A DNA stretch of 64,000 nucleotides from an uncultured Clostridium sp. Its GTDB lineage: Bacteria; Bacillota; Clostridia; TANB77; CAG-508. Where the stretch lies: the NCBI GenBank assembly GCA_948467495.1, contig CAOKEO010000003.1, positions 9,602 to 73,601 on the forward strand, written 5' to 3'. The position numbers and the translations under genes were made by a program. Numbering within the stretch: position 1 is the first letter of the stretch; the number at the start of each line of letters is the position of its first letter. The notes beneath the pieces were generated by a model. That model made no database searches. It saw only the letters and a program-made list of their open reading frames with translations, and was not told the origin of the DNA. Below, piece after piece: positions 28,846 to 58,562 of this stretch.

Positions 28846-28879
28846 TGCATAAAAAATAGAATAACTTTAAAAAACATTT

Positions 28880-34527: not shown

Positions 34528-34584
34528 GATAGTTACAAAAAAATTTCGACATATGTTAATATAGGTTCACTTCACAACAATTGA

Positions 34585-40864: not shown

Positions 40865-41260
40865 TTATACTCTTCTTCTTTTTGGTGGTCTACAACCATT
40901 GTGTGGTATTGGTGTCACATCTTTAATGCTACTTAATTCAAGACCTGCTGTTTGAAGAGCACGAATTGCTGCTTCTCTACCTGAACCAGGCCCTTTTACA
41001 AATACTTCTACTGATTTTAATCCATGTTCCATAGCAGCTTTAGCAGCTGTTTCTGCAACTTGACCTGCTGCATATGGTGTACTTTTTCTTGAACCTTTAA
41101 ATCCTAATTCTCCAGCACTTCCCCATGCGATTGCATTTCCTTGTGTATCTGTAATAGTAACGATTGTATTATTAAAACTAGAATGAATATGTGCAGCTCC
41201 TTTTTCAATGTTTTTCCTATTTCTTCTAGCTACTTTTTTCGTTGTTACATTTTTAGCCAT
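40865..41260 (-). CDS. rpsK: 30S ribosomal protein S11
   Basis: [18 protein letters not shown]...[16 protein letters not shown]. Confidence 0.97.
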
Positions 41261-41396
41261 TTTGCTTTTTCCTCCTTATTCAAAAATTTCATTCTGAATT
41301 TCTATCTTTCTTTTAAGAAAATTTTTCACTGATTCTATAAAATTGATTAAAAATTATTTTACAATTAGCAAATTTAACCTTTTATCAATTGCTATG

Positions 41397-41583
41397 AAAT
41401 TGATTAAAAATAGTAAGATGTGCAATTTTCACATTCATTTTAATCCGAAGGTGTACATTGGTACATCGAGGTTATGATGATTACAATCTCACTTAGTTCA
41501 ATTGCATAAGTTATCTGTAGTCTGCTTTGCTTCACACAGCTAACTCAAAATTGTGCAGATTGCTGCTTTCAATCGATTTCACT
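41397..41583. repeat. composite repeat: long imperfect palindrome (core GAAGGTGTAC-ATTG-GTACATCGAGG) with a 68-bp CACAATCTCAC..CACACAGC module (41479..41546) inserted in its right arm
   Basis: The arms GAAATTGATTAAAAA.. and ..CTTTCAATCGATTTC are complementary. The inserted module recurs at six other sites. Confidence 0.75.
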
Positions 41584-41952
41584 CTATTTTTTGCTTTTGC
41601 TAACCAACTTCCTAGGACCCTTTCTAGTTCTAGCATTCGTTTTAGTTCTTTGTCCTCTAACAGGAAGACCTCTTCTATGTCTTAGTCCTCTGTAGCATCC
41701 TATTTCAGTAAGTCTTTTGATATTAAGAGCAACTTCTCTTCTCAAGTCTCCCTCTACTGTATATGATTCGTCAATTACTTTTCTAATATCATTTACTTGA
41801 TCATCTGTTAAATCTTTAATTCTAGTATCTGGATTTATACCAGCTTTTTCAAGAATTTTTCTAGAACTTGATACGCCTATACCATAAATGTAGGTAAGTC
41901 CTATTTCCACTCTTTTTTCCTTTGGTAAATCTACTCCTGCTATACGAGCCAT
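41584..41952 (-). CDS. rpsM: 30S ribosomal protein S13
   Basis: [26 protein letters not shown]... GGAGGTG 9 nt upstream of ATG 41952. Confidence 0.97.
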
Positions 41953-42177
41953 ATTTTTTTGCACCTCCAAATTTTTTAATACTTACAAATTCGCTTTGCT
42001 CATCTGTATCAATTTTTTATTTGTCCTAAAAACATTTAAAGGTGAAATGCTACTGGTGTTTACCCCAGTCTCTTTAACGTTTTAAGACATATATATAAAC
42101 ACAAATTTGATATGTAACCCCTATTTTACAAAGGCTCACAGCCGCTACCTAATTTGTGTTATGAACAAATATAAGGA

Positions 42178-42291
42178 TTAACCTTGTCTTTGTTTGTGTT
42201 TAGGGTTTTCACAAATAACTCTAATCACACCTTTTCTTTTTATAATTTTGCATTTATCACATATTTTCTTTACTGATGGTCTTACTTTCAT
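42178..42291 (-). CDS. rpmJ: 50S ribosomal protein L36
   Basis: My translation is [37 protein letters not shown]. It is below the ORF-track size cut-off. GAGGAGGTG upstream. Confidence 0.93.
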
Positions 42292-42511
42292 TTCTGCACC
42301 TCCTCTTTCTTGACAGGGGACACACCTTACTGTGTTGTTTTTTACTTAGGTTAAGGAATGTCTCCTCCCCTTAGATTAAGTGTCTCTACTTTTTAGTCCT
42401 CTGTTTTGTAGTTTCTATATTGGGTTAATTTTTAACTTTTTTACTATCCATACCAAAACAAATAAAATTATTGTTGTTCATTCCTGATTGCTCAAGCAAC
42501 AAGGTAATCAT

Positions 42512-42730
42512 TTACTTTGCTCTCCAAGTAATTCTTCCTCTTGTTAAGTCATAAGGTGACAACTCTACTTTCACCTTATCTCCTGGTAAAATTTTAATAT
42601 AGTTCATTCTCAATTTTCCAGAAATATGAGCTAATATCTGATGTCCATTTTCAAGTTCCACTTTGAAATTAGTATTTGGTAAAGATTCTACTACTTTTCC
42701 CTCTACCTCAATCACATCTTCTTTCGCCAA
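42512..42730 (-). CDS. infA: translation initiation factor IF-1
   Basis: (M)[52 protein letters not shown]... TTG start 42730 with AAGGAGGG 7 nt upstream. Confidence 0.95.
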
Positions 42731-42819
42731 TTTTTTTCCCTCCTTAAAGAGCACTTTTCCTTGATTATTATGCAAAATATGGCTATTTTGCATAATAACT
42801 ATTAGATTATATACTATTT

Positions 42820-43590
42820 TTAAAGTATTGTCAATATTTCCGGCTCTTTTTCTGTAATTAAAATGGTATTTTCATAGTGAGCTGCCAAACTCCCATCTTC
42901 TGTCATAATCGTCCACCCATCATCTAATTCTAAAATATTAGGCTTTCCTGCTATTACCATGGGTTCTATCGCCAATGTCATACCTGGTTCCAATCGAATT
43001 CCCCTTCCTGCTTTTCCATAATTAGGAATCCCTGGATCTTCATGCATTTCTTTTCCAATGCCGTGTCCTTGAAACTCTCTTATAACAGAATATCCTTGTG
43101 AACGTACATACTCTCCAATCGCATGACATACATCACCAATTCGATTTCCTACTTTAGCATATTGAATGCCTTCAAAAAATGCTTGTTTGGTCACTTGCAC
43201 TAGTCTTTCCGCCTCTTTTGATGCTTTCCCAACAAGAAAGGTTCTAGCAGCATCGCCATGATAGCCATTTTTTAAAGCAACTGTATCAATACTTACCACA
43301 TCGCCCTCTTTTATAATTCTATCTTTAGAAGGAATTCCATGAATTACCTCATCATTAATAGAAACACAAAGGGAAGCTGGAAAAGGTGGTACTCCTTTGA
43401 TTCCAATATCATATCCTTTTTCTGCTGGAATCGCCCCCAAACTTCTCATTTTTCGTTCTGCTATTTGGTCTAATTCCCATGTTGACATCCCTGGCTTGAT
43501 ATGTTGTTCTAGTTCCTGATATGTTAATGCAACAACTTTACATACCTCTTGCATTAAAGTAATCTCTTTTTTTGACTTAATGGTTACCAA
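42820..43590 (-). CDS. map: type I methionine aminopeptidase
   Basis: 256 aa with metal ligands in ..[14 protein letters not shown].., ..GHGIG.. and ..AIEPM... TTG start. Confidence 0.93.
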
Positions 43591-43671
43591 CTTAACTCGT
43601 CCTCTCTCTTTTCTAGTTAATGCTATTTATCTACCTAAGGTGTATCTATTATTTTTTACACCTTAAATAGA

Positions 43672-44331
43672 TTACACTGATTTTATGATATCTTCTGCTA
43701 CATCTTTTCCCATCCTATTAATAGAAGTACTTACTGTCTCTGTTCTTAAAACTCCTTTGTTTTCGTAGTATTCTACTAATGGGCTGGTTTGTTCTTCGTA
43801 AATTTGTAATCTCTTATGAATTGCCCCTGAATTACAATCATCTTCTCTTTGTTTCAAAGAAGAACCACATTTATCGCAAATCCCATCTACTTTTGGTGGA
43901 TTTAATTTAATATTATAAGTTGCTTTACAATCTTGATTCGTACATACTCTTCTTGTTAGCATTCTATCAATCAACTCTTCTTTTGGTGTTTGTAAATTAA
44001 TGACTAAATCTACTTTTTTTCCAAACTCTTGTAAAATTTCATCTAATTTTTCAGCTTGTTGTATGGTTCTTGGAAAACCATCTAAAATAGCACCATTTTG
44101 TGCATCCTCTTCTTTTAAACGATTGATTACCATAGGAACCGTTATCTCATCTGGTACCAATTCTCCTTTTGCCATATATTCATTTGCTTTCATTCCTAAT
44201 TCTGTTTTTTCACTAAGATTTTTTCTGAAAATATCCCCTGTTGATATCTGTGGCCACCCCTTTTGTTGGCTAATTAGTCCTGCTACTGTTCCCTTTCCTG
44301 TCCCTTGTGCTCCTAACATGATAATTACCAT
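43672..44331 (-). CDS. adk: adenylate kinase (Cys4 zinc lid)
   Basis: MVIIMLGAQGTGKGT P-loop, lid CTNQDCKATYN...CDKCGSSL. Confidence 0.93.
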   Translation of the reverse strand: MVIIMLGAQGTGKGTVAGLISQQKGWPQISTGDIFRKNLSEKTELGMKANEYMAKGELVPDEITVPMVINRLKEEDAQNGAILDGFPRTIQQAEKLDEILQEFGKKVDLVINLQTPKEELIDRMLTRRVCTNQDCKATYNIKLNPPKVDGICDKCGSSLKQREDDCNSGAIHKRLQIYEEQTSPLVEYYENKGVLRTETVSTSINRMGKDVAEDIIKSV

Positions 44332-44608
44332 ATAAATCCCTCTTTTCATCTTATAAAAATTAGATTATTATATAAATTGTCTAAAACGCAATTAATAATC
44401 TTTATCATATCTATTCTTTTCCTATTCATAAACATGATAAAAATTATTAAATAGAACAACAGTGGCATGTTAAAATTTCTTCACCTTTTAGATTAGTTTT
44501 CATGCCACACCCGTTGTTCGTTCGCCAAAATTGCAAGCAATTTTCTGTAAAATGCTTTCTATTATAGGAAATTCAGAGAATTTTCCTATAATAGAACAAA
44601 ACTAAGAT

Positions 44609-45928
44609 TTATTCTAAGAAACCTTTATAGTGTCTCATCGCTAATTGAGATTCTAGTTGTTGTACCGTTTCTAAAGCAACTCCCACAACAATTAAGATAG
44701 ATGTCCCACCAAATGCAATATTTAGATTGGTAAATCTCAATAACATTGGCAAGATAGCTATTACTGCTAAGAATAATCCTCCAAATACCGTTAATTTAGA
44801 TATAATAGATGATAAATATTCAGTGGTTGGTTTACCAGCTCTAATTCCTGGTATAAATCCGCCATTTTTCTTAATATTATTGGATACTTCTGCTGGATTA
44901 AAAGTAGCATACGTATAGAAAAAAGTAAATCCAACAATTAATAGTAAATAAACAAGAGCATTTGCTATCGAATAGCTAATTCCTACATCAGATGTAGAAG
45001 TAGCAATTGAAAAATTATATAATCCTGCTAAAAATCCCGTATGACTTGCTATATCTGGTACAAAAATTTGAATAATCATAGCTGGAAATGTCATAAAAGA
45101 AGAAGCAAAAATAACTGGCATAACTCCTGCCATAGCAAGTTTTAATGGAATATGTGTACTTTGTGCACCTACCATTTTTCTTCCCACTACTTTTTTAGAA
45201 TATTGTACTGGTACTCTTCTTTCTGCTTGTTGAACAAATACTACTCCTGCTACTAATACTAAAGCACCTATAACAATTCCAATTGCTGTCAATAATCCTG
45301 TTGTGCTAAAGCCTTGTTCTGTCATTATTTGATTCCATAAAGTTGGCAGACCACTTGGTAATCTTGAAATAATACCAATAAAGATTAATAAAGAAATTCC
45401 ATTTCCAATTCCTTTATTGGTAATTTGGTCTCCTAACCACATAAGAACAGATGTACCTGCTACTAGTCCAACCACTACTAATGAACCTGTTAGGAAACTT
45501 TGATTCACAAATATACCAGAAGATTTATAAGATAAATAAACTCCAATTGCTTCTACTAACGCTAAAATAATAGTTAATATTTTGGTATATCTATTTATTT
45601 TTTGTCTTCCTTCTTCTCCGCCTTCTTTGGTCAATTTTTCTAAAGCTGGTATAATCATAGCCAATAGTTGAATCACAATAGAGGCTGTTATGTATGGACT
45701 AATTGACATAGCAAAAACAGAAAATCTAGAAAATGCCCCTCCTGAAATCATATCAATTAATCCTGCAAATCCATTCGTATTTCCCATTGCTTCATTTAGT
45801 GCTACACTATTTACACCTGGTACTGTAATAAAGCACCCAAGCCTAAATACAACAATTAGCACTAATGTGTATAATAGTCTTTTTCTTACATCTGGCGTCT
45901 TTATTGCATTTTTGATTGTTTTAAACAA
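44609..45928 (-). CDS. secY: preprotein translocase subunit SecY
   Basis: 439 aa, 10 TM helices, typical SecY sequence. TTG start directly after the rplO stop with GAGGTGG upstream. Confidence 0.96.
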   Translation of the reverse strand: MFKTIKNAIKTPDVRKRLLYTLVLIVVFRLGCFITVPGVNSVALNEAMGNTNGFAGLIDMISGGAFSRFSVFAMSISPYITASIVIQLLAMIIPALEKLTKEGGEEGRQKINRYTKILTIILALVEAIGVYLSYKSSGIFVNQSFLTGSLVVVGLVAGTSVLMWLGDQITNKGIGNGISLLIFIGIISRLPSGLPTLWNQIMTEQGFSTTGLLTAIGIVIGALVLVAGVVFVQQAERRVPVQYSKKVVGRKMVGAQSTHIPLKLAMAGVMPVIFASSFMTFPAMIIQIFVPDIASHTGFLAGLYNFSIATSTSDVGISYSIANALVYLLLIVGFTFFYTYATFNPAEVSNNIKKNGGFIPGIRAGKPTTEYLSSIISKLTVFGGLFLAVIAILPMLLRFTNLNIAFGGTSILIVVGVALETVQQLESQLAMRHYKGFLE

Positions 45929-46363
45929 TTAAACCACCTCAGCCTTTCCGCCTAAAGCTTCAATTGCTTCTTTGGCTTTTGCTGTAAATCTTTTTGCTTT
46001 AATATTTAACTTCTTGTCTAATTTTCCTGTTGCTAACACTACGATTCCATCATTAACTTTTCCGATAATTCCTTCTGCCAATAAGGTTTCTGCTGTTACT
46101 TCGGTAGCTTTTGATAGATTTAACATTTTTAATGTTACCTCTGTATAAGTTTTGGCATGAATATTGGTGAAACCTCTTTTTGGTAATCTTCTATATAATG
46201 GTGTTTGACCACCTTCAAAACCTCTTCTTACGCCTCCACCACTTCTTGCTTTTTGTCCTTTATGTCCTCTTCCAGATGTCTTTCCATTTCCAGAAGCCAT
46301 TCCACGACCTACTCTATTTCTCTTTACTTTACCTACAGTTGGTTTTAACTCATTTATTTTCAT
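45929..46363 (-). CDS. rplO: 50S ribosomal protein L15
   Basis: [53 protein letters not shown] upstream of ATG 46363. Confidence 0.95.
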
Positions 46364-46419
46364 TTGGTATTTTGCACCTCCTCTTTCTAAGTTAGCCGTT
46401 AGCGACAAAGGAGCTTTAC

Positions 46420-46636
46420 GGATAACTTATGCAAAATGCGTAAGCATTTTGTAATCCTTAATTTCCTTCTTTTGCCTTTCTCTACCTATGATGAATTATG
46501 GATAACATGCACAAAATGCGCAAGCATTTTGTAATCCTTAATTTCCTTCTTCTGCCTTTCTCTACCTATGATGAATTATGGATAACATGCAAAATGCGTA
46601 AGCATTTTGTAATCCTTAATTCTCTTCTTTGCCTCT
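46420..46636. repeat. tandem repeat, 80-bp period, 2.7 copies, occupying the position where rpmD (L30) normally lies
   Basis: Units start at 46420, 46500 and 46580. Each has an 8-bp hairpin CAAAATGC-GTAA/GCAA-GCATTTTG. Confidence 0.9.
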
Positions 46637-46650
46637 TAGCTATATTCACA

Positions 46651-47136
46651 TTATAAAATATCTTCTACTTTTTTACCTCTCTTTTTAGCCACTTGTTCTA
46701 CTGTTTGCATAGCCTTTAATCCTTCAATTGTAGCATAAACAACATTTCTTGGATTATTGGTTCCAATAACTTTTGTTCTAATATTTCTATAACCAGCTAG
46801 TTCCATAACTGGTCTTACGCTTCCACCTGCTATGATACCAGTACCAACTGCTGCTGGTTTTAGCATAACTTTAGCACTACCAAAAGTCCCAACATATTCA
46901 TGAGGTACAGTTGTTTCAACGATTGGCACTTCCACTAAGTTCTTTTTCGCTTCTTGGATTGCTTTTTTGATAGCATCTGGAACTTCTGCTGCTTTACCAT
47001 TTCCTACACCTACATGACCATTTTCGTCTCCTACTACTACGACAGCACTAAATCTAAAAGTTCTACCACCTTTAACAACTTTAGCAACTCTATTAATAGC
47101 TACAACCTTTTCTTTTAATTCATTTTTCTCTTCCAT
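46651..47136 (-). CDS. rpsE: 30S ribosomal protein S5
   Basis: [26 protein letters not shown].... Confidence 0.97.
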
Positions 47137-47229
47137 AGGTTTTTGTTAATCCTCCTTTTCTTGTTTTTGTCAAGGGACACTTTATTTATCCATAAGTGTT
47201 TACCCTATCTTAATTTCTGATATTTATTT

Positions 47230-47589
47230 TTAGAACTTAAGTCCACCTTCTCTTGCTGCTTCTGCTAGTTCTTTAACAACACCATGATAAATATATCCAC
47301 CACGGTCAAAAACAACGGTTTCAATCTTTTTATCAGCTGCTTTTTTAGCAATTAAAGTACCTAATTCTTTAGCGGCTTCTTTATTAGCATGTTTTGTTTT
47401 GATTTCCTTATCTAATGTTGAAGCTGATACTAATGTATTTCCTGCAACATCATCGATAATTTGTACATATAAATTTGTATTACTTCTATATATACATAAT
47501 CTTGGTCTTTCTAGTGTTCCAGATATCTTTCTTCTTACACGAATGTGTCTTCTCGTTCTTTCCATTTTTCTATCTGTCTTTTTAACCAT
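47230..47589 (-). CDS. rplR: 50S ribosomal protein L18
   Basis: [25 protein letters not shown]...[27 protein letters not shown]. Confidence 0.97.
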
Positions 47590-47632
47590 TTCCTTACTCC
47601 TTTCTAAAAATTGAGTTTTTACTATTCATTCA

Positions 47633-47759
47633 TAATTCAAATCAAATTTGATATATTGTGCATTTTTCAGATTGATTACAAGCCGAAGGTGTACGTTGGT
47701 ACATCGAGGTTTGAAATCAATATGGAAAATGTACAAAATGTTAATTTTCATTTGAATTA
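47633..47759. repeat. 127-nt imperfect palindrome filling the rplF-rplR spacer
   Basis: Pairing partners sum to 95392 (e.g. 47681:47711). Inner hairpin GGTGTAC-GTTG-GTACATC. 5 G:T pairs and no A:C pairs on the plus strand. Confidence 0.85.
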
Positions 47760-47761
47760 GT

Positions 47762-48298
47762 TTATTTTCCAGTCTTACCTTCCTTACGTCTAATAACCTC
47801 ATCAGCGTATTTAATCCCTTTTCCTCTATACACTTCTGGTGGTCTTTTCATTCTAATAACTGCTGCTGTTTGACCAACTAATTCTTTATCAATTCCATTT
47901 ACAATAATCGTATTAGCATTTGGAACATCAAAAGTAATTCCATCTGGTGCTTCAAAAATAACTGGATGTGAATAACCTAAAGTTAAATTTAAGTTATTTC
48001 CTTGTTTTGCTACTCTATATCCAACACCATTAATTTGTAATTCTTTACTATAGCTACTGGTTACACCAATAATCATATTATTGATTAATGTCCTAGTTAA
48101 GCCATGTAAGCTTCTGTTAGCTGGTTCATCATCTTTTCTAGTAACTGTAATGATATTATCTTCCATTTTAACAGAAATATTTTTATGTATTTCTCTTGCT
48201 AATGTACCTTTTGGTCCTGTTACAGTAATATTTTGTCCTTCTATTTTCACTTGTACTTCTGATGGTACTGTGATAGGTTTATTTCCTATTCTTGACAT
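47762..48298 (-). CDS. rplF: 50S ribosomal protein L6
   Basis: MSRIGNKPITVPSEVQVKIEGQNITVTGPKG.... Confidence 0.97.
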   Translation of the reverse strand: MSRIGNKPITVPSEVQVKIEGQNITVTGPKGTLAREIHKNISVKMEDNIITVTRKDDEPANRSLHGLTRTLINNMIIGVTSSYSKELQINGVGYRVAKQGNNLNLTLGYSHPVIFEAPDGITFDVPNANTIIVNGIDKELVGQTAAVIRMKRPPEVYRGKGIKYADEVIRRKEGKTGK

Positions 48299-48380
48299 TA
48301 TTTTCCCTCCTTTTTTAATGATTACAATCTCACTTTGCTCGATTGCATAAATTATTTGTAGTTCGCTTCACACAACTAAC

Positions 48381-48779
48381 TTACCATACATAGGCTAATA
48401 CTTCTCCACCAACACCTAATTCTCTAGCTTCTTTATCTGTTTTTAGTCCTTTTGATGTAGAAATGATAGCAATTCCTAATCCATTTAATACCTTTGGTAA
48501 TTCTTCTTTGGATGCGTACACTCTTAATCCTGGTTTACTAATTCTTTTTAAACCATCAATTACTCTGGTTCCTTTTTCATCATATTTTAGTGTAATTCTT
48601 ATGATTCCTTGTGTATCATCTTTGATTTCTTCAAAAGATTTTATATATCCTTCTTTGAATAGAATTTCAGCAATTCCTCGTTTCATATTGGAAGCTGGAA
48701 CATCTACTGTTTTATGCTTTGAACTATTTGCATTTCTAATTCTTGTTAACATATCTGCAATTGGATCTGTAATGTTCAT
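48381..48779 (-). CDS. rpsH: 30S ribosomal protein S8
   Basis: [18 protein letters not shown]...GGEVLAYVW. Confidence 0.97.
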
Positions 48780-48866
48780 GAATTACTTACCTCCTTTTCT
48801 TCTTTCTTAGCAAGGGGCTTATTTCCCCTTCTTATCTTTATTTTAGCATTTATTTATTTGTTAAAA

Positions 48867-48981
48867 AAATCAAAATTAGTATATTGTGCATTTTTGTTAA
48901 GTTTTTCAAGATGAAGGCGTACACGAGTACGTCGAAATTTGAAAAACTTACTGAAAATGTGCAAGATGCTGATTTTCATTT
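48867..48981. repeat. 115-nt imperfect palindrome in the rpsN-rpsH spacer
   Basis: Pairing partners sum to 97848. Inner hairpin GGCGTAC-ACGA-GTACGTC. 7 G:T pairs and no A:C pairs on the plus strand. Confidence 0.85.
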
Positions 48982-48987
48982 ATTTTA

Positions 48988-49173
48988 TTACCAGCTGGCT
49001 TTTTTTACACCTGGAATCTCTCCCTTATGTGCTAACTCTCTAAAACATACACGGCATATACCATATTTTCTGATATAGCTATGTGGTCTTCCACATAATT
49101 TACATCTGTTGTATTCTCTTGTTTTATATTTTTGTGGTCTAGCTTGTTTTATTTTCATTGACTTTTTAGCCAT
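48988..49173 (-). CDS. rpsN: 30S ribosomal protein S14, zinc-binding type Z
   Basis: 61 aa, [23 protein letters not shown]. Confidence 0.96.
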
Positions 49174-49194
49174 AATTTTACTCCTTTCTTACAG

Positions 49195-49477
49195 TTCACA
49201 ATCTCACTTTGTTCGATTGCGTAAGTCATCTGTAATTCGCTTAGCTTCACACAGCCTACTACTGAATGTTCACAATCTCACTCGTTCGATTGCGTAAGTC
49301 ATCCGTAATTCGCTTCGCTTCACACAGCCTACTACTGAATGTTCACAATCTCACTTCGTTCGATTGCGTAAGTCATCTGTAGTTCGCTTCGCTTCACACA
49401 GCCTACTACTGAATGTTCACAATCTCACTCGTTCGATTGCGTAAGTCATCTGTAGTTCGCTTCGCTTCACACAGCTG
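49195..49477. repeat. tandem array (3.8 copies, 73-74 bp) of the CACAATCTCAC..GATTGCGTAAGTCATCTGTA..CACACAGC module
   Basis: Units start at about 49195, 49269, 49342 and 49416. The last unit overlaps the final codons and stop of rplE. Confidence 0.92.
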
Positions 49478-50012
49478 ACTTAAATGGCATTCCTAATGCT
49501 TGTAATAATTCTTTTGATTCTTCGTCTGTTTTGGCTGTTGTTACAAATATGATGTCCATTCCTCTTAATTTATCAACTTTGTCATATTCAATTTCAGGGA
49601 ATATTAATTGTTCTTTTACTCCCATAGAGTAATTTCCTCTACCATCAAAAGAGTTTGTTGATACTCCTCTAAAATCTCTTACTCTTGGAAGGGCTACATT
49701 GAATAATTTGTAAGCAAAGTCATACATTTTGTCTGCTCTTAATGTTACTTTACATCCTATGTTCACACCTTCTCTTAATTTAAATGCTGCAATTGATTTT
49801 TTTGCTTTTGTAATAACTGGTTTTTGTCCTGTTATTTGCATTAAATCATTCATCGCATTTTCCAATGCTTTTGGATTTTCTTTTAAATCTCCTAATCCTA
49901 TATTAATTACTATCTTATCAAGTTTTGGTACTTGCATCACTGATTTATATTCAAATTTTTTCATTAATGCTGGGATTACTTCCTTTTCATATTGTTCTCT
50001 TAATTTTTCCAT
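49467..50012 (-). CDS. rplE: 50S ribosomal protein L5
   Basis: [20 protein letters not shown]...[15 protein letters not shown]. Start ATG 50012. Confidence 0.95.
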
Positions 50013-50038
50013 AATCAACGAATCCTCCTTTCTTTCTT

Positions 50039-50347
50039 CTATTTTATGGTCGCACCGCATTTTTTACAAACACGTACTTTTTGGTCTTTTTCTATTTGAT
50101 ATCCAATTTTTGTAGCTTTACCACATTTTGAACATACTACATTTACTTTTGAACTTGGTATAGCACATTCAATTGCTATGATTCCGCTTTCTTCTCCTTG
50201 TTTTCTGGCTTTTACATGTTTTTTTCTAACATTTACACCTTTTACAATGATTTTATCAGTCTTTGGATTGATTTGTAACACTTCTCCTGTTTTACCTTTG
50301 TCATTTCCTGATAAAACTTGAACGTTATCACCTTTTTTGATTCTCAT
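50039..50347 (-). CDS. rplX: 50S ribosomal protein L24
   Basis: [23 protein letters not shown] (KOW motif). Confidence 0.96.
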
Positions 50348-50400
50348 TTAGGAATTTCCTCCTTTTCTTAGTTTTTATTTTTATTCTCTGTTGTAAAACG

Positions 50401-50640
50401 AATTAGAATTAGTATATTGTGCATTTTGCTGATACTGTTAAGCTTTAGCTGTTACAGTATCAGTATGCAAATGAATTTTATATTCATTTGCCCTCATTTC
50501 ACTAACTTCAAGCTGAAGGCGTACTCTTGTATGTCGAAATTATAATGACTACAATCTCACTTCGTTCGATTACATAAGTTATCTGTAGTTCGCTTTGCTT
50601 CACACAGCTAACTCAAAAATGCACAAGATGCTGATTATAA
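50401..50640. repeat. composite repeat: outer palindrome carrying two different inserted modules
   Basis: Left arm 50401..50430, double-hairpin module 50431..50512, core hairpin GAAGGCGTAC-TCTT-GTATGTCGAAA, CACAATCTCAC module 50547..50614, right arm AAAAATGCACAAGATGCTGATT. Confidence 0.75.
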
Positions 50641-50646
50641 TTTGTT

Positions 50647-51015
50647 TTATAGAACTTCTGGAGCTAATGAAAGAATTTTCATATACTCCTTCTCTCTTAA
50701 CTCTCTTGCAACTGGTCCAAAGATACGAGTTCCCTTTGGCGTTCCATCTTCTTTAATAATAACAGCTGCATTTTCATCAAATTTTATATATGAACCATCT
50801 GCTCTTCTTAATCCACTCTTAGATCTAACAATAACAGCTTTTACAACATCACCTTTTTTAACAACGCCACCTGGTGTTGCTGATTTAACAGAAGCAACTA
50901 TAACATCTCCTATATTAGATGTTTTTCTAAATGATCCTCCTAAACATCTGATACACATGATTTCTTTCGCCCCTGTGTTGTCTGCTACTTTTAATCTTGA
51001 TTGTTGTTGTATCAT
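50647..51015 (-). CDS. rplN: 50S ribosomal protein L14
   Basis: [23 protein letters not shown].... Confidence 0.98.
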
Positions 51016-51031
51016 TTTGGTTCCTCCTTTC

Positions 51032-51295
51032 CTACTTTATATCTGCTTTTTCTACAACTTCAACTACTCTCCATCTTTTATCTTTAGAAAGTGGTCTTGT
51101 TTCCATTACTTTTACTTTATCACCCATTTGGCAAACATTTTCTTCATCATGTGCTTTTAATTTGTAAGTTCTTTTTACTGTTTTACCATATACTTTATGA
51201 CTAACACTAGTTTGAACAGCTACTACTACTGTTTTATCCATCTTATTAGATGTTACTGTACCAATCATAACTTTACGAAGATTTCTTTCTTCCAT
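51032..51295 (-). CDS. rpsQ: 30S ribosomal protein S17
   Basis: [16 protein letters not shown]...[23 protein letters not shown]. Confidence 0.97.
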
Positions 51296-51421
51296 TTAGA
51301 TTTCTCCTTTCTAATAATGTCAGGGGACACACCTCTTCCCCTTAGGTATTCCACTTAAGTTTGGGAAATAGCCCCTCTCCTTGCTTTTAAGTGTTTACCT
51401 TTTTGCTAACATATTTCATTT

Positions 51422-51628
51422 TTATGCTTTAGCATCTAGCATTTTTCTTTCTGTCAATACGGTATTTATTTTAGCTATATCTTTTTTTACCTCTTTTATT
51501 TTCATAGGATTATCTAATCCGTTGGTAGCTAAACTAAATTTTAATTTGAACAATTCTGTTTTTAGTTCACCTAATTCTTTCTCTAAATCTGGTGAAGACA
51601 TTTCTCTTATTTTATTTATCTTCATCAT
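51422..51628 (-). CDS. rpmC: 50S ribosomal protein L29
   Basis: [34 protein letters not shown] 51628 is preferred over the track's GTG at 51634. Confidence 0.93.
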
Positions 51629-52055
51629 TTTCACCTACCTTTTCTGTTTCTCTTGCTACAAATTTTGTTTTGTTAGGTAGTTTGTTCATAGCAAGTCTTA
51701 AGGCTTCTTTTGCAGTTTCTTCTGATACTCCAGAAATCTCAAACATTACTCTTCCTGGTTTTACAACTGCAACCCAATATTCTGGCGCACCTTTACCTTT
51801 ACCCATACGAGTTCCAATAGGTTTTGCTGTAATTGGTTTGTCTGGAAAGATTTTAATCCAAACTTTTCCACCTCTTTTTATATAACGAGTCATAGCAATT
51901 CTGGCTGCTTCAATTTGATTTCCTGTAATTAAAGCACCTGTTACTGCTTGGATTCCATATTCTCCATCTGTAACTTTATTTCCTCTTGTTGCCTTTCCTC
52001 TCATTCTACCTTTTTGTACTTTTCTATGTTTTGTTCTTTTTGGCATTAATGGCAT
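51612..52055 (-). CDS. rplP: 50S ribosomal protein L16
   Basis: [22 protein letters not shown].... Confidence 0.97.
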
Positions 52056-52711
52056 TATTGGTCTCCTCCTTCCATTTTCTTCTCTGGAAGAACTTCTCCT
52101 TTATAAATCCAAACTTTTACACCGATTTTACCATAGGTTGTATCTGCTTCTGCAAATCCATAATCAATATCAGCTCTTAAAGTTTGTAGTGGAATATTTC
52201 CTTCTTTATAGAATTCAGTTCTAGCCATGTCAGCTCCACCTAATCTTCCAGATACAGCAGTTTTAATTCCTAAAGCACCTGCTTTCATAGATTTTTGCAT
52301 ACATTGTTTCATGGCTCTTCTGAATGAAATTCTTCTTTCTAATTGTCCTGCAATATTTTCTGCTACTAATTGAGCATCTGTATCCATATTTTTAACTTCT
52401 ACGATGTTTAAATTAACATCTTTACCAATTAATTTTGTTAATTCTGCTTTTACACTTTCTACACCTGCTCCACCTTTTCCAATAACAATTCCTGGTTTTG
52501 CCGTGTGTAAATTAACCTTGATTGCTTTTGCTGTTCTTTCAATTTCAATTTTAGAAATACCAGCAAGATATAATTTTTTCTTTAAAAATTTACGAATCTT
52601 TTGATCTTCTACTAAATAATTTGCAAAGTTTCTTGAATCTGCATACCATTTAGAATTCCAATCTTTTATGATTCCAACTCTTACTCCTGTTGGATGTACT
52701 TTTTGTCCCAT
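52055..52711 (-). CDS. rpsC: 30S ribosomal protein S3
   Basis: [24 protein letters not shown].... Confidence 0.98.
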
Positions 52712-52718
52712 ATTATTC

Positions 52719-53084
52719 CTAGTCCTCCTTTTCTTTCAAAACTATTGTAATGTGACTTGTTCTTTTTCTAATTCTTACTGCTGAACCTTTTGCAGCTGGA
52801 CGTATTCTTTTTAAAGTTGGTCCTTGATTGCTATAGATTTCAGCAACATATAATTTCTCATGTCTCATGTCATGATTATTTTCAGCATTTGCGATAGCTG
52901 ATTTTAATAATTTCTCTATGATTTCTGATGATGCTTTTGGTGTGAATTTTACGATAGCTAAAGCTTCATCTACATCTTTTCCTCGAATTAAATCTGCTAC
53001 GATTTTAACTTTTCTAGCTGAAATCCTTGCATATTTCAAGGTTGCTTTTGCTTCGTTTCTAACTAATGTTTCTTGCTCTTGCAC
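52719..53084 (-). CDS. rplV: 50S ribosomal protein L22
   Basis: [25 protein letters not shown]... GTG start with AAGGAGG upstream. Confidence 0.95.
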
Positions 53085-53156
53085 TTTTCTTACCTCCTTA
53101 GATTAGTGTCTAGGGGCTACTTATCCATTTAAGTTTTTCCCCTTCTATTTGTCTCT

Positions 53157-53432
53157 CTATTTATTTGTTTTCTTATCTCCTGCATGACCTTTGAAGGTTC
53201 TTGTAGGAGCAAATTCACCTAATTTATGACCAATCATTTCTTCTGCTATATAAATTGGAACATGTTTTCTTCCATCATGTACAGCAATTGTATGACCAAC
53301 CATTTGTGGATATATTGTTGAAGCTCTAGACCATGTCTTTAAAACTTCTTTATTTCCAGATTCATTCATAGCTTCTACTCTTTTTAGTAGTTCTGGTGCT
53401 ACATATGGTTTTTTCTTGCTTGATCTTGACAT
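53157..53432 (-). CDS. rpsS: 30S ribosomal protein S19
   Basis: [30 protein letters not shown].... Confidence 0.97.
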
Positions 53433-53460
53433 ATTATAAATGTCCTCCCTTCTTTTTTTA

Positions 53461-53576
53461 GTAAGTTATCCGTAAAACTCACTTCGTTCGCTAACGGCTT
53501 TTCTATTGTTCACAATCTCCCTTTGGTCGATTGCGTAAGTTATCCGTAGAGCTCGCTTTGCTCGCTAACGGCTAAC
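53461..53576. repeat. 1.6 copies of the CACAATCTC..GATTGCGTAAGTTATCCGTAG..GCTAACGGCTAAC module variant
   Basis: Begins immediately after the rplB stop (TGA-GTTAGCCGTTAGCG in mRNA sense). An inverted fragment lies at 46391..46432. Confidence 0.8.
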
Positions 53577-54404
53577 TCACTTTCTTCTCTTTACAATAAA
53601 TTTATTAGATTGTTTCTTTTTATTTCTTGTTTTATATCCAAGAGCTGGTTTACCCCAAGGTGTCATTGGTCCAGCGTGTCCTACTGGTGCTCTACCTTCA
53701 CCACCACCATGAGGGTGATCTACTGGGTTCATTACAGAACCTCTAACAGTTGGTCTAATTCCCATATGTCTTTTTCTACCAGCTTTACCAATTTTAACAT
53801 TCTCATGATCACTATTTCCGATTACTCCGATAGTAGCTCTACAGGTTGCTAAAATTAATCTCATTTCTCCTGATGGAAGTCTTACATGGGCATATTTTCC
53901 TTCTTTTGCCATTAATTGTGCACTTTGTCCTGCTGCTTTTACTAATTTTCCACCTTGTTTTGGATTTAACTCAATGTTATGAATTAAAGTACCTACTGGA
54001 ATTGAACTAATTGGCATACAGTTTCCTGGTTTGATATCAGCTGTTTCTCCAGATATCACTTTATCTCCATCTTTTAATCCTTGTGGAGCTAAGATATATG
54101 CTTTTTCTCCATCTTCGTATTCCACTAATGCAATATTAGCACTTCTGTTTGGATCATATTCAATTCCTATTACAGTTGCTGCCATATCGTCTTTTCTTCT
54201 TTTAAAATCTACTATTCTATATTTTTGTCTATTTCCACCACCTTGATGTCTTACTGTGATTCTTCCATAGGAGTTTCTTCCTGCATTTTTCTTTTTCTTT
54301 GCTAATAAAGATTTCTCAGGAGTTTTCTTTGTAATTTCTCCAAAGTCTGAAACTGTCATATTTCTTCTAGATGGTGTATAGGGTTTGAAGTGTTTCATTC
54401 CCAT
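53577..54404 (-). CDS. rplB: 50S ribosomal protein L2
   Basis: [14 protein letters not shown]...[15 protein letters not shown]. Start ATG 54404 (AAAGGAG upstream). Confidence 0.96.
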
Positions 54405-54675
54405 TTTTTTCTCCTTTCTCGAATTCATGAAAAACTTCGTTTTACGTCGTTACTGATGCTATTAAAGCTTTGCTTGTTACTGCATTAGTATGCAGTTTGC
54501 GTAGCAAACTGACTTCATTAAGTTTTCCTAGTAATACTCGTTTTTGTTGAATTCTCTACTCTACTGATTGGTTTTCGAGAGTAGTTGCGGACTTTTTCCT
54601 GCTCCGCATAACAGATATTCTTTATTTTCCTGGTATTTTCCAGCTAATTTTTTTATCTAATTTCCATTTGTGTAC

Positions 54676-54868
54676 GAAATTGATTAAAAGTGATATATTG
54701 TGCATTTTGCTGATATTGTTAAGCTTCAGCTGTTACAATATCAGTATGCAAATGAATTTTATATTCATTTGCCTCCATTTTCTTAATCTTAAACTGAAGG
54801 CGTACGTTGGTACGTCGAAATTTGTAATCAATAGCGAAAATGTGCAAGATGTTGCTTTTAATCGATTT
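54676..54868. repeat. composite repeat: outer palindrome with inserted double-hairpin module
   Basis: Arms GAAATTGATTAAAAG.. and ..CTTTTAATCGATTTC. Inserted module 54711..54796. Core GAAGGCGTAC-GTTG-GTACGTCGAAA. Ends at the rplW stop codon. Confidence 0.8.
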
Positions 54869-55216
54869 CTAGGCACCCATGAATTCGTCAATACTATCTT
54901 TGTATTTTTTCGTAACTTTTGTTGCTTTTCCACCTTTTGCTAAATAAGAGGTATCTTCTGGATTAGTATCAATTGTAACAATTGCTTTCTTCCAATCTGA
55001 AGTCTTACCAATGTGGTAACCAACTCTTTTCTTCTTACCATTTACATTCATGGTATTCACTTTTAAAACTTTTACCTCAAAAAGTTTTTCAACAGCTTTT
55101 GCTATTTCCACTTTTGTTGCTTTTTTATTTACTTTGAAAGTGTATTTTCCTTCTTGCAATTGATCATTACTTTTTTCTGTAACAATTGGTGCTACAATAA
55201 TCTCTTCTGGTTTCAT
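54869..55216 (-). CDS. rplW: 50S ribosomal protein L23
   Basis: IVAPIVTEKSNDQLQEGKYTFKVNKKATKVEIAKAVEKLFEVKV.... Confidence 0.95.
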   Translation of the reverse strand: MKPEEIIVAPIVTEKSNDQLQEGKYTFKVNKKATKVEIAKAVEKLFEVKVLKVNTMNVNGKKKRVGYHIGKTSDWKKAIVTIDTNPEDTSYLAKGGKATKVTKKYKDSIDEFMGA

Positions 55217-55840
55217 TTAAGCGTACACCTCCTCTAATTTTTTAACAGTATCTACTGGTAAAATTAGATTTGTATATTTTAATAAATCAAATACATTAAT
55301 ATTATTGGCAGTAATTGTTTTAACTCCTTCAATATTTCTAGATGACATAAAAACATTTTTATTGTTTTCTGGAAGAACGATTAATGTTTTTCCTTCTACT
55401 TTTAAATCTGTTAAAGCCTTTACCATTGTCTTTGTTTTGATTTCTTTTACTTCTAATTTATCTACTACTGTTAATTCTTTTTCTAACACTTTAGAACTTA
55501 AGATTGATTTAATTGCCAATCTTCTTTCTTTTTTATTAACGGTATATTTGTAAGAACGAGGTTTTGGTCCTAATGCGATACCACCTTTAATCCATTGTGG
55601 GCTTCTTGTAGAACCTTGTCTTGCTCTACCTGTTCCTTTTTGTCTCCATGGTTTTTTACCACCACCAGAAACTTCTGCTCTTGTTTTAGTACTTCCAGTA
55701 CCTTGTCTTTGATTAGCTAAATAGTTTACTAACACACTATGTACAATGTTTTCATTTGGTTCAATTCCAAATACAGTGTCAGCTAATTCTATATCACTTA
55801 CTTTTTTACCTTTTAAATCATATACATCTACTTTTGGCAT
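55217..55840 (-). CDS. rplD: 50S ribosomal protein L4
   Basis: RQGTGSTKTRAEVSGGGKKPWRQKGTGRARQGSTRSPQW. Confidence 0.97.
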   Translation of the reverse strand: MPKVDVYDLKGKKVSDIELADTVFGIEPNENIVHSVLVNYLANQRQGTGSTKTRAEVSGGGKKPWRQKGTGRARQGSTRSPQWIKGGIALGPKPRSYKYTVNKKERRLAIKSILSSKVLEKELTVVDKLEVKEIKTKTMVKALTDLKVEGKTLIVLPENNKNVFMSSRNIEGVKTITANNINVFDLLKYTNLILPVDTVKKLEEVYA

Positions 55841-55858
55841 TATCTTTTCCTCCTTCCT

Positions 55859-56491
55859 CTATTTACTAGCCTTTACAGCTGATTTTACTTTTAGGATAGC
55901 TCCTTTTGCTCCTGGAACGCTTCCTTTTACTAAAATTACATTTTTATCCATATCTACTCTTACAACATCTAAGTTTTGAATTGTAATAGTAACTCTTCCC
56001 ATATGTCCTGGTAATTTCTTACCTTTAAATACTCTACCTGGTGTTGAAGTAGATCCCATTGAACCTGGTCTTCTATGATACATAGAACCATGTCCCATTG
56101 GTCCTCTGTGTTGACCATGTCTTTTGATAACACCTTGGAACCCTTTTCCTTTTGATATTCCTTGTACATCTACTTTTTCTCCTGCTTCGAAAATGTCTGC
56201 TTTGATTTCATCTCCTACTTTGTAGCCTGCTACATCTTCTACTCTGAATTCTCTTAGATGTTTTTTATTAGCAAGTTTTGCTTTTGCAAAATGTCCTGCT
56301 TCTGGTTTGTTTATATGTTTATCTTTGATTTCTCCGTATCCTAATTGAATGGCATCATATCCATCTGTTTCTACTGTTTTTACTTGTGCTACAATATTTC
56401 CTGCTGTTTCGATAACAGTAACTGGAATGACGTTTCCTTTTTCATCGAAGATTTGTGTCATACCGATTTTTTTTCCGATAATTCCTTTCAT
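55859..56491 (-). CDS. rplC: 50S ribosomal protein L3
   Basis: [28 protein letters not shown].... Confidence 0.98.
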
Positions 56492-56728
56492 TTTCTTTCC
56501 TCCTAACTATTGGCTGAAAATAATAATTCTAAACTTCGTCTCACTTCGTTAAATTTCGTTCTAAAATCCCCGACCTACACAAGTACGCCTCCGGTTTTAT
56601 CACTTATTTGCCTTGTGATACTCGTTTTAAATTCTTATTTAGATTTCGGCTTGGTTTTGCTGAGGCTGTTAAATTTGTTTGTCACAGCATCAGTATGCAA
56701 ATACATTAAGCATTTGTTTTGCTTAATC

Positions 56729-57052
56729 TTACAATTTTATCTCTATGTCAACACCAGCTGGTAACTCTAATTTCATTAGACTGTCCACTGTTTTTTGTGT
56801 TGGATAAAGTATATCGATTACTCTTTTATGGGTTCTCATTTCAAATTGTTCTCTTGAATCTTTGTATTTGTGTGGAGAACGTAAAATTGTTACGATTTCT
56901 TTTTGTGTTGGTAATGGAATAGGACCTGAAACCTTTGCTCCTGTTTTTTTAGCAGTATCTACTATCTTTTCAGCAGACTGATCTAAAACTACATGGTCAT
57001 ACGCTTTCAATCTTATTCTAATTTTCTCACTTGTTGCTATTGTGTTTGCCAT
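56729..57052 (-). CDS. rpsJ: 30S ribosomal protein S10
   Basis: [40 protein letters not shown]. Confidence 0.98.
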
Positions 57053-57067
57053 TGTAATTTTCCCTCC

Positions 57068-57203
57068 TTCTTTTTATGTTCACAATCTCATTTTATTCGA
57101 TTGCGTAAGTTATCTGTAACTCGCTTCGCTTCGCACAGCTACTACTGTTCACAATCTCATTTTATTCGATTGCGTAAGTTATCTGTAGCTTGCTTCGCTT
57201 CGC
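57068..57203. repeat. two tandem 69-bp copies of the CACAATCTCA..GATTGCGTAAGTTATCTGTA..CGCACAGC module inside the S10 leader
   Basis: Units start at 57068 and 57137. The array ends 15 nt upstream of the rpsJ start codon region (SD GAAGGAGGG). Confidence 0.9.
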
Positions 57204-57265
57204 ACAGCTAACTTAATTACCTTGGCAAGTTAAAACGCACTCTGGTGTTTCGAATATCACCTATA

Positions 57266-57297
57266 GAAAAACCCAAAATGTGCATGATAATTTTGGG
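57266..57297 (-). terminator. terminator-like hairpin inside the S10 leader (possible attenuator)
   Basis: Minus strand CCCAAAAT-N10-ATTTTGGG followed by TTTTTC, about 125 nt downstream of the promoter -10 and 210 nt upstream of rpsJ. Confidence 0.45.
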
Positions 57298-57420
57298 ATA
57301 AGTACATTTCTTACCGCCTGGTCTTTGCCATAACATACTCCACCAAAGTTCCCTCCATTCCATATTTCCGTAGGAATGTAGCCACATTTGGCTTCAACGC
57401 TTATTCATTCATGCTTATCT

Positions 57421-57449
57421 ATTATACAACCCTTATTTCCGTATGTCAA
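57421..57449 (-). promoter_or_regulatory. consensus sigma-A promoter of the S10 operon
   Basis: Minus strand TTGACA (57449..57444), 17 nt, TATAAT (57426..57421). Confidence 0.75.
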
Positions 57450-57563
57450 CACCTTTTTACAAATTTGTAACATTTCTGGTAACTATACAGACGTTTTGTT
57501 TTTTGCCATAAAAGTTTCTATATTTTTTATGTATGGGTAACTCTCCGATTTTTCCCATACCAT

Positions 57564-57598
57564 AAAAAATGTTGCTATCTATTGTAGCAACATTTTTT
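57564..57598 (-). terminator. intrinsic (bidirectional-looking) terminator after ldh
   Basis: AAAAAATGTTGCTA-N7-TAGCAACATTTTTT, 8 nt after the ldh stop. Confidence 0.7.
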
Positions 57599-57605
57599 AT
57601 TCTTT

Positions 57606-58562
57606 CTATTCTTCCTCAATTATTTTTTCAATTGATTTTTCTCTCATCTCTTTTATTAATTGACAACTGTTATTTAACTTTTCTTGTTCTGCATTATCCA
57701 AATCTATTTTAAGAAGCTCTCTCACACCGTTTCGACCAATAATAGCAGGCACACCAATATAAATATCATCTTGACCATACTCATTTTTCAAATAGGTAGA
57801 AACCGTTAAAATAGAATTTTCATCATCAAGAATTGCTCTAACCAATCGATTTAACGCCATTCCAATTCCATAATAGGTAGCCTTTTTCTTTTCAATAATC
57901 TCATAAGCTGCATTTACTACTCCTTCATGTATCTTCTTTAAATCTTCCATCGGATGTTGACCATCTTTCATAATATCTTTTACTCTCTTGCAGCCAACAT
58001 AAGCATGGTTCCAAGGGACAAATGAAGAATCTCCATGTTCTCCCATAATATAAGCATGAACATTTTTACTAGATACCTTTAAATAATCTGCCATCAAATA
58101 GCGAAGTCTAGCCGTATCTAAAACTGTCCCTGACCCAATTACTTTATTTTTTGGCAACCCTGAAACTCTCCAAACAACATAAGTCATTAAATCTACTGGA
58201 TTACTTGCCACAACAATAATGCCATCAAACCCACTTTCCATGATTGACTTTGTAATTTGCTTTATAATTTTAGTATTCACTTCCGCCAATTCTAACCTTG
58301 TTTGCCCTGGTTTTTGTGCCACACCTGCTGTTATTACAACTACCTCTGCCTCTTTACATTCACTATAATCACCAGCTTTGATAATCATTTTTTGAGGAGC
58401 ATATGGTAACCCATGCGATAAATCCATCTCCTCACCTACTGTTTTTTCTTTATCAATATCAATTAAAATGAGTTCTTCTATTCCTCCTCTATTCAACATA
58501 GAATACGCCATACTCATTCCAACAAACCCTGTTCCTACTAGAACTACTTTTCCTTTTTTCAC
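57606..58562 (-). CDS. ldh: L-lactate dehydrogenase
   Basis: VVLVGTGFVGMSMAYSM, catalytic GEHGDS, 318 aa. Confidence 0.93.
   Translation of the reverse strand: MKKGKVVLVGTGFVGMSMAYSMLNRGGIEELILIDIDKEKTVGEEMDLSHGLPYAPQKMIIKAGDYSECKEAEVVVITAGVAQKPGQTRLELAEVNTKIIKQITKSIMESGFDGIIVVASNPVDLMTYVVWRVSGLPKNKVIGSGTVLDTARLRYLMADYLKVSSKNVHAYIMGEHGDSSFVPWNHAYVGCKRVKDIMKDGQHPMEDLKKIHEGVVNAAYEIIEKKKATYYGIGMALNRLVRAILDDENSILTVSTYLKNEYGQDDIYIGVPAIIGRNGVRELLKIDLDNAEQEKLNNSCQLIKEMREKSIEKIIEEE

Follow-up and report, generated by a model that had tools for sequence, protein, structure and literature searches.

A two-hairpin repeat module in the spacers of a clostridial ribosomal-protein operon

Several families of short repeats and stem-loops have been described in the intergenic DNA of bacteria. 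MIRU elements are reportedly units of 40-100 nt, often in tandem and with strain-variable copy number, and are said to occupy operon spacers, oriented with transcription and overlapping the upstream stop codon. The pneumococcal BOX elements (boxA-boxB(n)-boxC) are modular, intergenic and co-transcribed, with a variable number of tandem sub-units, and REPs stabilise upstream mRNA. In clostridia, operons of Clostridium and Ruminiclostridium are reported to undergo selective RNA processing and stabilisation (SRPS), with intergenic stem-loops proposed to set the stability of transcripts or cistron segments (PMC4423207, PMC8219983). Clop-1 is an intergenic stem-loop repeat of C. perfringens with 44 published copies (Cozzuto et al. 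2008, PMC2267715).

Here we describe a small repeat module in a window of 64,000 nt, the whole stretch of DNA that was analysed, which has 30.6% G+C and contains an S10-spc-alpha ribosomal-protein operon. The operon lies on the minus strand, so that its mRNA reads as the reverse complement of the window. Few bacterial gene arrays are as compact and conserved as ribosomal-protein operons. In this one, several repeat families have invaded the spacers, and one of them has altered the C-terminus of L5.

The module and its neighbours in the window

The original prediction was that a 73-nt module is repeated 3.8 times between rplE and rpsN. Tandem Repeats Finder (TRF) agrees, reporting 49194-49475 with a period of 73, 3.8 copies, 96% matches and a score of 515. 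The same array was also reported at a period of 147 nt (x1.9), which suggests that a block of two units has been doubled. The start-to-start spacing of the units is 73, 74 and 73 nt, and since the units have these lengths and the L5 stop is not crossed by any ORF of the minus strand, the array is non-coding, as had been claimed.

When a 23-nt core was searched with up to three mismatches, nine matches were found in the window versus none in 100 shuffles. The pattern ACAATCTCN{6,8}TCRATTRCRTAA, which fixes most of hairpin 2 of the module, gave ten matches versus zero expected, all on the + strand, the operon's sense. We also scored the whole 64-kb window with a covariance model of the module, filters off, and obtained ten sense copies of 62-97 bits, four in the rplE-rpsN spacer and six elsewhere in the operon (Table 1). 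Every copy detected by the model in the window lies inside the ribosomal-protein operon, and nothing convincing was found in the remaining 47 kb, positions 1-40000 included. The copy coordinates given originally proved correct to within a few bases. A junction script found 5 occupied junctions among the 29 of the ribosomal-protein region and none among 35 co-directional junctions elsewhere (Fisher p = 0.016); by the covariance-model coordinates, a sense copy is present in six junctions and an antisense copy in one. The antisense copy is part of an 80-nt tandem repeat and remains antisense in relatives, and the weak copy upstream of rpsM is also present in the related locus L114.

Table 1. Positions of the module copies and of other features in the window
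Feature	Coordinates	Strand	Support or remark
S10-spc-alpha ribosomal-protein operon	rpsJ 57052 down to rpoA 39190	-	
Four-unit tandem array filling the rplE-rpsN spacer	49186..49484	-	TRF and covariance model
Units of the rplE-rpsN array	49411-49488, 49338-49408, 49269-49334, 49190-49268	-	covariance model
rplE (L5, 181 aa)	49467..50012	-	TCA GCT GTG and the TGA stop (49467-49469) belong to the module
rpsN (S14)	48988..49173	-	Shine-Dalgarno AAGGAG directly after the last module unit
Single copy filling the rpsH-rplF spacer	48316..48389	-	78 bits
Single copy, rpsM-rpsK, nested in the 5' arm of family B	41475..41553	-	86 bits
Single copy, rplN-rplX, nested in family B	50543..50621	-	90.5 bits
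rplB-rpsS spacer, full copy and then a lone hairpin 1	53504-53585, 53468-53499	-	82.9 and 14 bits
Two tandem copies, 69-nt spacing, rpsJ 5'UTR	57074-57142, 57143-57221	-	96.8 and 63.7 bits
Antisense diverged copy with variant hairpin 2, rpsE-rplO	46382..46460	+	48.4 bits
Weak degenerate sense copy just upstream of rpsM	41977..42045	-	30.5 bits, E about 1e-4
Perfect promoter TTGACA-17-TATAAT upstream of rpsJ	57449-57421		
Weak Rfam S10-Clostridia leader match	57311-57405	-	21.3 bits, cut-off 35.1
80-nt tandem repeat, 2.8 units, rpsE-rplO spacer	46409-46650		TRF 46416-46634
Family B	47623-47753, 48851-48981, 54734-54864; also around 41261-41583, 50348-50646		
Family C	50434-50471, 54459-54496, 54715-54752, 56500-56580, 34339-34376		
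Family E	51296-51421, 47137-47229, 53085-53156, 39089-39152, 42311-42374		
35-nt unit, x2.3-2.5	21908-22013, 38391-38496		
Upstream blocks	15988-16031, 34486-34529, 58681-58724; also 15931-16007 / 28792-28868		

Other repeats are found around the module. Family B, of about 110-130 nt, forms one long hairpin (GCATCTTGCACATTTT ... CGACGTACCAACGTACGCC ... AAAATGCACAATAT) in which the 5' arm holds the module and the 3' side a further one, and its composition varies between strains; in L120 and L121 family B occurs without the module. Family C (GCATACTGATACTGTAACAGCTAAAGCTTAACAGTATCAGC, often after CAAATGAATATAAAATTCATTTG) lies in several spacers and nested in family B. Family E (GGGTAAACAC ... GTGTCCCYTGAC) has clean filled and empty sites among near-identical strains: the rpmC-rpsQ spacer measures 126 nt in the window versus 19-23 nt in L115 and L116, and the rpsQ-rplN site is filled only in L115. 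When the gap between rpsE and rplO was inspected for rpmD (L30), no L30-sized ORF was present in any of ten genomes, the window and nine relatives down to about 75% amino acid identity. Outside these families, a 35-nt unit (CCTGTCCCAAAAAACACC.A.AGGGATAATC.G.G) recurs at two sites 16.5 kb apart that are 83% identical over 106 nt, and the blocks ATAAAAAATATAGAAACTTTCTAATTGRAATATATCAC and CAGTCTGTAAT..ATAACAGACTGTAATCTTGCTGGTCCCCC precede unrelated genes and a tRNA pair; these repeated blocks may be shared promoter or regulator sites.

Fold, stop codons and placement in operons

In the mRNA sense the module reads (T)TAAGTTAGCTGT-[apex]-ACAGATAACTTA YGCAATC-GA-NN-GAA-NN-GA-GATTGTR AAC, with a core of about 66-70 nt that reaches 73-74 nt with its linker; units elsewhere measure 65-75 nt. 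Single copies fold into two hairpins. We aligned 82 copies from many genomes and examined them with RNAalifold and by explicit pair counting. The paired cells amounted to 95.4%, versus 26-40% when the partners were slid by 1-3 columns, and changes on both sides of a pair were seen in 119 cells versus 35 in column shuffles, none of 500 shuffles reaching 119. Several pairs alternate, namely 19/54 (UA 47, CG 20), 23/50 (UA 53, CG 24) and 60/86 (UA 57, CG 22). The conservation of hairpin 2 is partly due to ascertainment, since the search pattern fixes most of it, and in hairpin 1, which lies outside the pattern, 93% of the cells pair. Among the wobbles on the sense strand of the 82 copies, G.U (47) outnumbers A.C (22), and therefore the fold belongs to the sense strand; one further G.U is present in all 82 copies, with both of its bases fixed by the search pattern. 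The tips of both hairpins share the motif C-GA-NN-GAA-NN-GA-G, which comprises tandem G.A, a mini-stem of two pairs and a GAA loop, and three apical bases of hairpin 1, numbered G22, A28 and A32 after the first copy of the alignment, are the same in 90% or more of the copies.

Compensation was also examined in groups of copies that share flanking DNA, three of which merge neighbouring operon sites. Double changes in these groups preserved a pair 35 times and broke it 6 times, as in GTTAGCC/GGATAAC versus GTCAGCC/GGATGAC (L051/L091) and CTGT/ACAG versus CCGT/ACGG (infB-rbfA), and the rates of change were equal in paired and unpaired columns (2.89 versus 2.76 per column). Gene conversion between copies could be a source of such apparent compensatory changes. 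The rpsH-rplF copy has mismatches in some strains. A terminator scan of the sense strand found no hairpin followed by a T-run at any module, and no consensus promoter was found inside the module.

The module is closely associated with stop codons, as originally proposed. It follows directly on the rpsH stop, reading TAA-GTTAGTTGTG with the TAA as the first three bases of the copy, and the full copy after rplB begins at the TGA stop and reads TGA-GTTAGCCGT. In rplE, the predicted location of the stop within the module also holds: the gene ends TTT AAG TCA GCT GTG TGA, with the stop inside hairpin 1, and the first array unit overlaps the last four codons of L5 and its stop. The L5 of the window has 181 aa and the C-terminus GMPFKSAV, the solved L5 of Bacillus and Geobacillus has 179 aa, and relatives at 90% identity or more end in GMPFKN, GMPFKA or GMPFKG (179 aa) or in GMPFKTKKSK (183 aa). 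As judged from these C-termini, the module has taken over the last codon and the stop of L5 and added two residues. L5 ends in KSAV in all near-identical strains, whether they have four, two or one units, and in L094, the rplE-rpsN spacer of which contains no module, L5 nevertheless ends in KSAN, keeping module-derived codons; L087 has the same KSAN-type remnant followed by a full module copy. The claim that the module supplies stop codons is supported by its 5' end, TTAAGTTAGCTGTGTGA, which closes two or three reading frames. At least two frames are closed within 20 nt in 68 of 71 sense copies versus 32% of shuffles and in none of the antisense copies. Because of this property the module can sit on or replace a stop codon, which explains the KSAV end of L5 here.

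We then surveyed the context of the module with nhmmer over 95 low-GC loci, which yielded 119 arrays, the unit of counting below. Genes in these loci were called with a codon-usage ORF scorer; its calls are approximate, and in the window it recovered all ribosomal-protein genes of at least 35 codons. Both flanking genes were called in 78 arrays of the main family, and 70 of these are sense between co-directional genes, four are sense and precede the first gene of a divergent pair, and four are antisense, three of them at the rpsE-rplO site; none lies between convergent genes. The fixed orientation noted for the window is therefore clade-wide. The flanking genes, a subset of which was confirmed with Pfam, include many ribosomal-protein genes, rplJ-rplL, gatA/gatB, infB-rbfA, pgi, tpiA, ctsR-mcsA, grpE, disA, murA and histidine-kinase/ABC-transporter pairs.

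In 24 of 84 arrays the module contains the upstream stop, which in 15 cases is the TAA of TTAAGT itself; with stops up to 12 nt away included, the number rises to 39 of 84. Proximity to stop codons thus stands, but proximity to starts is stronger, the next start codon being 40 nt or less from the module end in 53 of 90 arrays, with room only for a Shine-Dalgarno sequence. Typically a module takes up the gap from a stop to the following Shine-Dalgarno sequence, or makes up the final stretch of a 5'UTR. Adjacency to both is partly trivial, because an insert tolerated in a spacer of 20-30 nt must abut both the stop and the Shine-Dalgarno sequence. A role at cistron 3' ends, the second part of the original prediction, is too narrow, because copies also occur where there is no upstream cistron, in the rpsJ 5'UTR and after TATAAT boxes. 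The rpsJ copies follow a perfect promoter and then a weak S10-leader-like match and precede the Shine-Dalgarno sequence, and about 13 arrays at histidine-kinase/ABC-transporter (HK-ABC) loci begin 2 nt after a TATAAT box, where the modules would form the 5' end of a transcript from promoters assigned by consensus. The weak Rfam leader match itself (Table 1) falls between the rpsJ promoter and the module pair. In L002, L006, L059, L077, L078, L089 and L095, the region before the ABC-transporter gene contains a direct repeat, TGTAAGAATYGTGTAAGG, some 40 nt ahead of the module-preceding TATAAT box; we take it to resemble the response-regulator site of a Bce-type HK/ABC module.

L054 has a divergent region with two copies, which lie 22-27 nt from the starts of the two genes, each in sense to the gene that it precedes. 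When the strand was judged by GC3 skew, which had clearly opposite signs in 8 of 10 loci with genes on both strands, the 28 significant arrays were all on the leading strand and none on the lagging strand, in a sample with no clearly lagging-strand operon carrying a full copy. The host operons are expected on the leading strand anyway. Since all strand-informative arrays are on the leading strand, the orientation of the module could follow replication instead of transcription; one of the two L054 copies is sense to a lagging-strand gene.

Turnover, distribution and novelty

Ten contigs encode identical S8, and their other operon proteins are 97.5-100% identical to those of the window. Among them the rplE-rpsN array has four, two or one units and other spacers differ greatly. 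The array has thus grown or shrunk between strains, probably by slippage or unequal recombination. At rpsH-rplF, rplE-rpsN, rplB-rpsS and rplN-rplX alike, some relatives have the module and others have an empty site. The rpsH-rplF spacer, for example, measures 20 nt without the module in L041 (about 95% amino acid identity), the rplB-rpsS site is empty in L057, L068 and L102, and at rplN-rplX relatives have a copy directly after the rplN stop instead. Since sites are present or absent among relatives at 93-98% amino acid identity, no single module copy is essential. The module of the rplB-rpsS spacer of L114 (5186-5347) differs considerably in sequence from that of the window (53433-53576) and follows a TAA instead of a TGA stop, in an operon the proteins of which are 99.6% identical to those of the window; this points to exchange of the spacer in L114 by recombination.

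Copies at different loci have the same identity within and between genomes (0.763 in both cases), and 75 of 79 copies have their closest match in a genome other than their own, so that a recent transposition burst was rejected; the copies are old and locus-specific. A comparison of filled and empty sites at rpsH-rplF (TGG TAA [..] TAAAAAAGG versus TGG TAG AAAAAGG) was examined together with the bases beside other copies. TA or TAA stands beside many copies and is inseparable from the conserved ends of the element, and copies with a 5' TGA carry no matching 3' TGA, so that neither a target-site duplication nor the targeted insertion suggested originally is demonstrable. The same holds for TTAAG as the target, since the L105 element carries its own.

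When species-representative genomes were scanned, at least 113 stretches matched. Among the matches listed, most are MAGs of 24-35% G+C that bear the label uncultured Clostridium or Clostridia and come from mouse, deer, rabbit and other samples, and about 15 are chance matches in high-GC taxa. A variant in which hairpin 2 is the same but hairpin 1 differs is found in C. perfringens v20, Clostridium sp. B9 and Clostridium sp. LIBA-8841. The module family is restricted to a clade of low-GC gut Clostridia. Carriage by phages or viruses was dismissed, as five pattern matches in IMG/VR were obtained and none of them passes the covariance model. MAG contigs, or the 8-kb locus tiles, end inside module arrays at L003, L007, L012, L019, L032, L045, L046, L049, L058, L067, L072, L082 and L109, and where the contig itself ends there the repeat may break short-read assembly.

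A search of the whole window against Rfam (4227 families, ribosomal-protein leaders included) at gathering thresholds returned two tRNAs only, and at E values up to 10 over 41000-57700 no match overlapped any module copy. Literature searches by words and by exact sequence strings returned primer coincidences only and no description of the family. Several known types of element were considered and rejected. The module is identical neither to Clop-1 nor to Clot-1, the published repeat sets being different sequences. A DDE-type MITE does not fit, because the ends GTTAGCYGT... and ...GATTGTRAAC share only about three complementary bases (by eye, from the alignment), the fold is two separate hairpins and not one long one, and near-identical copies within a genome are absent; one MITE trait, presence/absence polymorphism between related genomes, is found. 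The core sites GTTRRRY/RYYYAAC of attC do not appear to fit the module, and a CRISPR-like reading was dropped for the absence of unique spacers. A trait of the IS200/IS605-RAYT elements is present, namely similar same-strand hairpins at both ends without inverted repeats. The family of small two-hairpin repeats to which the module belongs is apparently undescribed.

Possible roles and relation to known systems

Our favoured reading, held with modest confidence, is that the module is a structured repeat like REP, BOX, ERIC and MIRU that would serve as an RNA spacer, stabilising or insulating the neighbouring cistrons. The sense bias together with a sense-strand fold kept by compensation suggests a constraint on the RNA, as do its placement immediately before ribosome-binding sites, also at apparent transcript starts, and the absence of terminator or promoter features. 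By analogy with selective RNA processing and stabilisation in other clostridia, the module would act as a self-contained double-hairpin spacer within the polycistronic mRNA, an intercistronic stabiliser or insulator. Endonucleolytic cleavage in its AU-rich flanks or short linker might leave hairpin 1 as a protection against exonucleases at the 3' end of the upstream segment and hairpin 2 as one at the 5' end of the downstream segment, and a spacer held in local structure would keep the adjacent Shine-Dalgarno sequence unpaired. If the hairpins do affect mRNA processing, strains with one, two and four units form a natural series in which to study how intercistronic structure tunes cistron ratios. 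A more far-reaching proposal, which we regard as rather doubtful, is a mobile yet host-maintained RNA cassette, in which one dedicated protein (a processing/stability factor or a Y1-type enzyme) would bind the twin GA/GAA loops, and which would install at TAA stops of highly expressed operons and set the output of neighbouring cistrons. If so, cistron stoichiometry in ribosomal-protein operons could evolve as a repeat is gained, lost or changed in copy number.

The same fold could be read at the level of DNA. The module might be a selfish single-stranded mini-element moved by an HUH/Y1 transposase of the IS200/IS605 or RAYT type, with no function as RNA; the hairpins would then be left-end and right-end recognition sites, and the hairpin strand would be oriented by the fork on the lagging-strand template. 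Two direct, non-inverted hairpins on the same strand with the common apex, the absence of terminal inverted repeats and of a clear target duplication, strand-specific structure tolerating G.T, the hairpin strand being the leading-strand sequence in all 28 arrays with significant GC3 skew, and patchy occupancy between species are all consistent with this possibility. However, among the nhmmer matches in about 0.7 Mb of loci, no lone hairpin 1 followed by an ORF and a lone hairpin 2 was apparent and no transposase partner, RAYT or other, came to light, the copies are old and show no bursts within genomes, and compensatory changes occur within the flanking-DNA groups, several of which merge neighbouring sites. 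In addition, the L105 element brought its own TTAAG, which is thus not simply the target, and one L054 copy is sense to a lagging-strand gene. IS608-type ends have their cleavage site some distance from the hairpin, whereas the foot of the module hairpin adjoins the 5' end. We regard such an element as the main alternative to our reading, though a somewhat unlikely one.

Three further explanations keep the module in the RNA or in translation. A dedicated cis-regulatory RNA, recognised by a specific protein at its twin GA/GAA loops and acting as a regulon-wide operator on downstream translation or decay, would account for the same apical motif in both hairpins, for the G22, A28 and A32 of hairpin 1, which the pattern did not fix, for the consistent position just 5' of the Shine-Dalgarno sequence and for the presence in many housekeeping operons. 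The variation between one, two and four units at one site among strains, the empty sites in close relatives, flanking genes without obvious common regulation and the lack of a candidate protein make it improbable. It is very unlikely indeed that small ORFs through the units couple the translation of the flanking genes in the manner of MIRU: tandem sense arrays in operons that overlap the upstream stop would be expected in that case, but the unit length of 73/74 nt (65-75 elsewhere) is not divisible by three, the first 20 nt of each unit close two or three frames and no ORF spans the array. The chance that the module is an intrinsic terminator or attenuator inside the operon is close to negligible; its hairpins are stable, but neither is followed by a T-run, the sense-strand scan found no terminator at the modules, and the module directly precedes essential downstream cistrons.

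Whatever its role, the rplE-rpsN array is a ready VNTR marker for typing strains of this uncultured gut clostridial lineage, and the covariance model can be used to mask the repeat in screens for non-coding RNA and in MAG assembly.

When the module is compared with the described systems, MIRU is like it in tandem units in operon spacers, orientation with transcription, strain-variable number and overlap with the upstream stop. The differences are that the sequences are unrelated and the phylum is another one, that the module units are not multiples of three, that stops in several frames make a coupling ORF impossible, and that the main feature of the module is a conserved two-hairpin fold with covariation. 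The likeness to BOX lies in the variable number of tandem sub-units, intergenic and co-transcribed, and in the modular nesting, with the module in family B and another module, family C, on the other side of B; the sequence is unrelated, and the module is strongly sense-biased and located beside stop codons and Shine-Dalgarno sequences. With REP/BIME it shares short imperfect palindromes in transcribed extragenic DNA. GTAG stands just 5' of a hairpin only in the internal linkers of the window's arrays and is absent from most copies, and unlike BIMEs and REPINs the module copies run head-to-tail on one strand and not as inverted pairs, with a copy number that appears modest. Like the stem-loops of SRPS operons, the module places hairpins in intercistronic spacers of clostridial operons, where they are proposed to set relative cistron stability; those stem-loops appear to be locus-specific and not a repeated family. 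Clop-1 (ATAAAACTTACAAACATATTC...) is a different sequence from the module and corresponds in role to family B. In one truncated copy, cpe:14, the Clop-1 sequence continues as ...CTAGATTTTAAGTGAAAGCC, with which the perfringens-type variant of the module begins; this mirrors the nesting of the module in family B in the window. Another 19 truncated Clop-1 copies end at ...AGATTT or ...AGATTTTAA. The module is no new kind of system, but adds one more family to a class already known, the structured intergenic repeats of bacteria.
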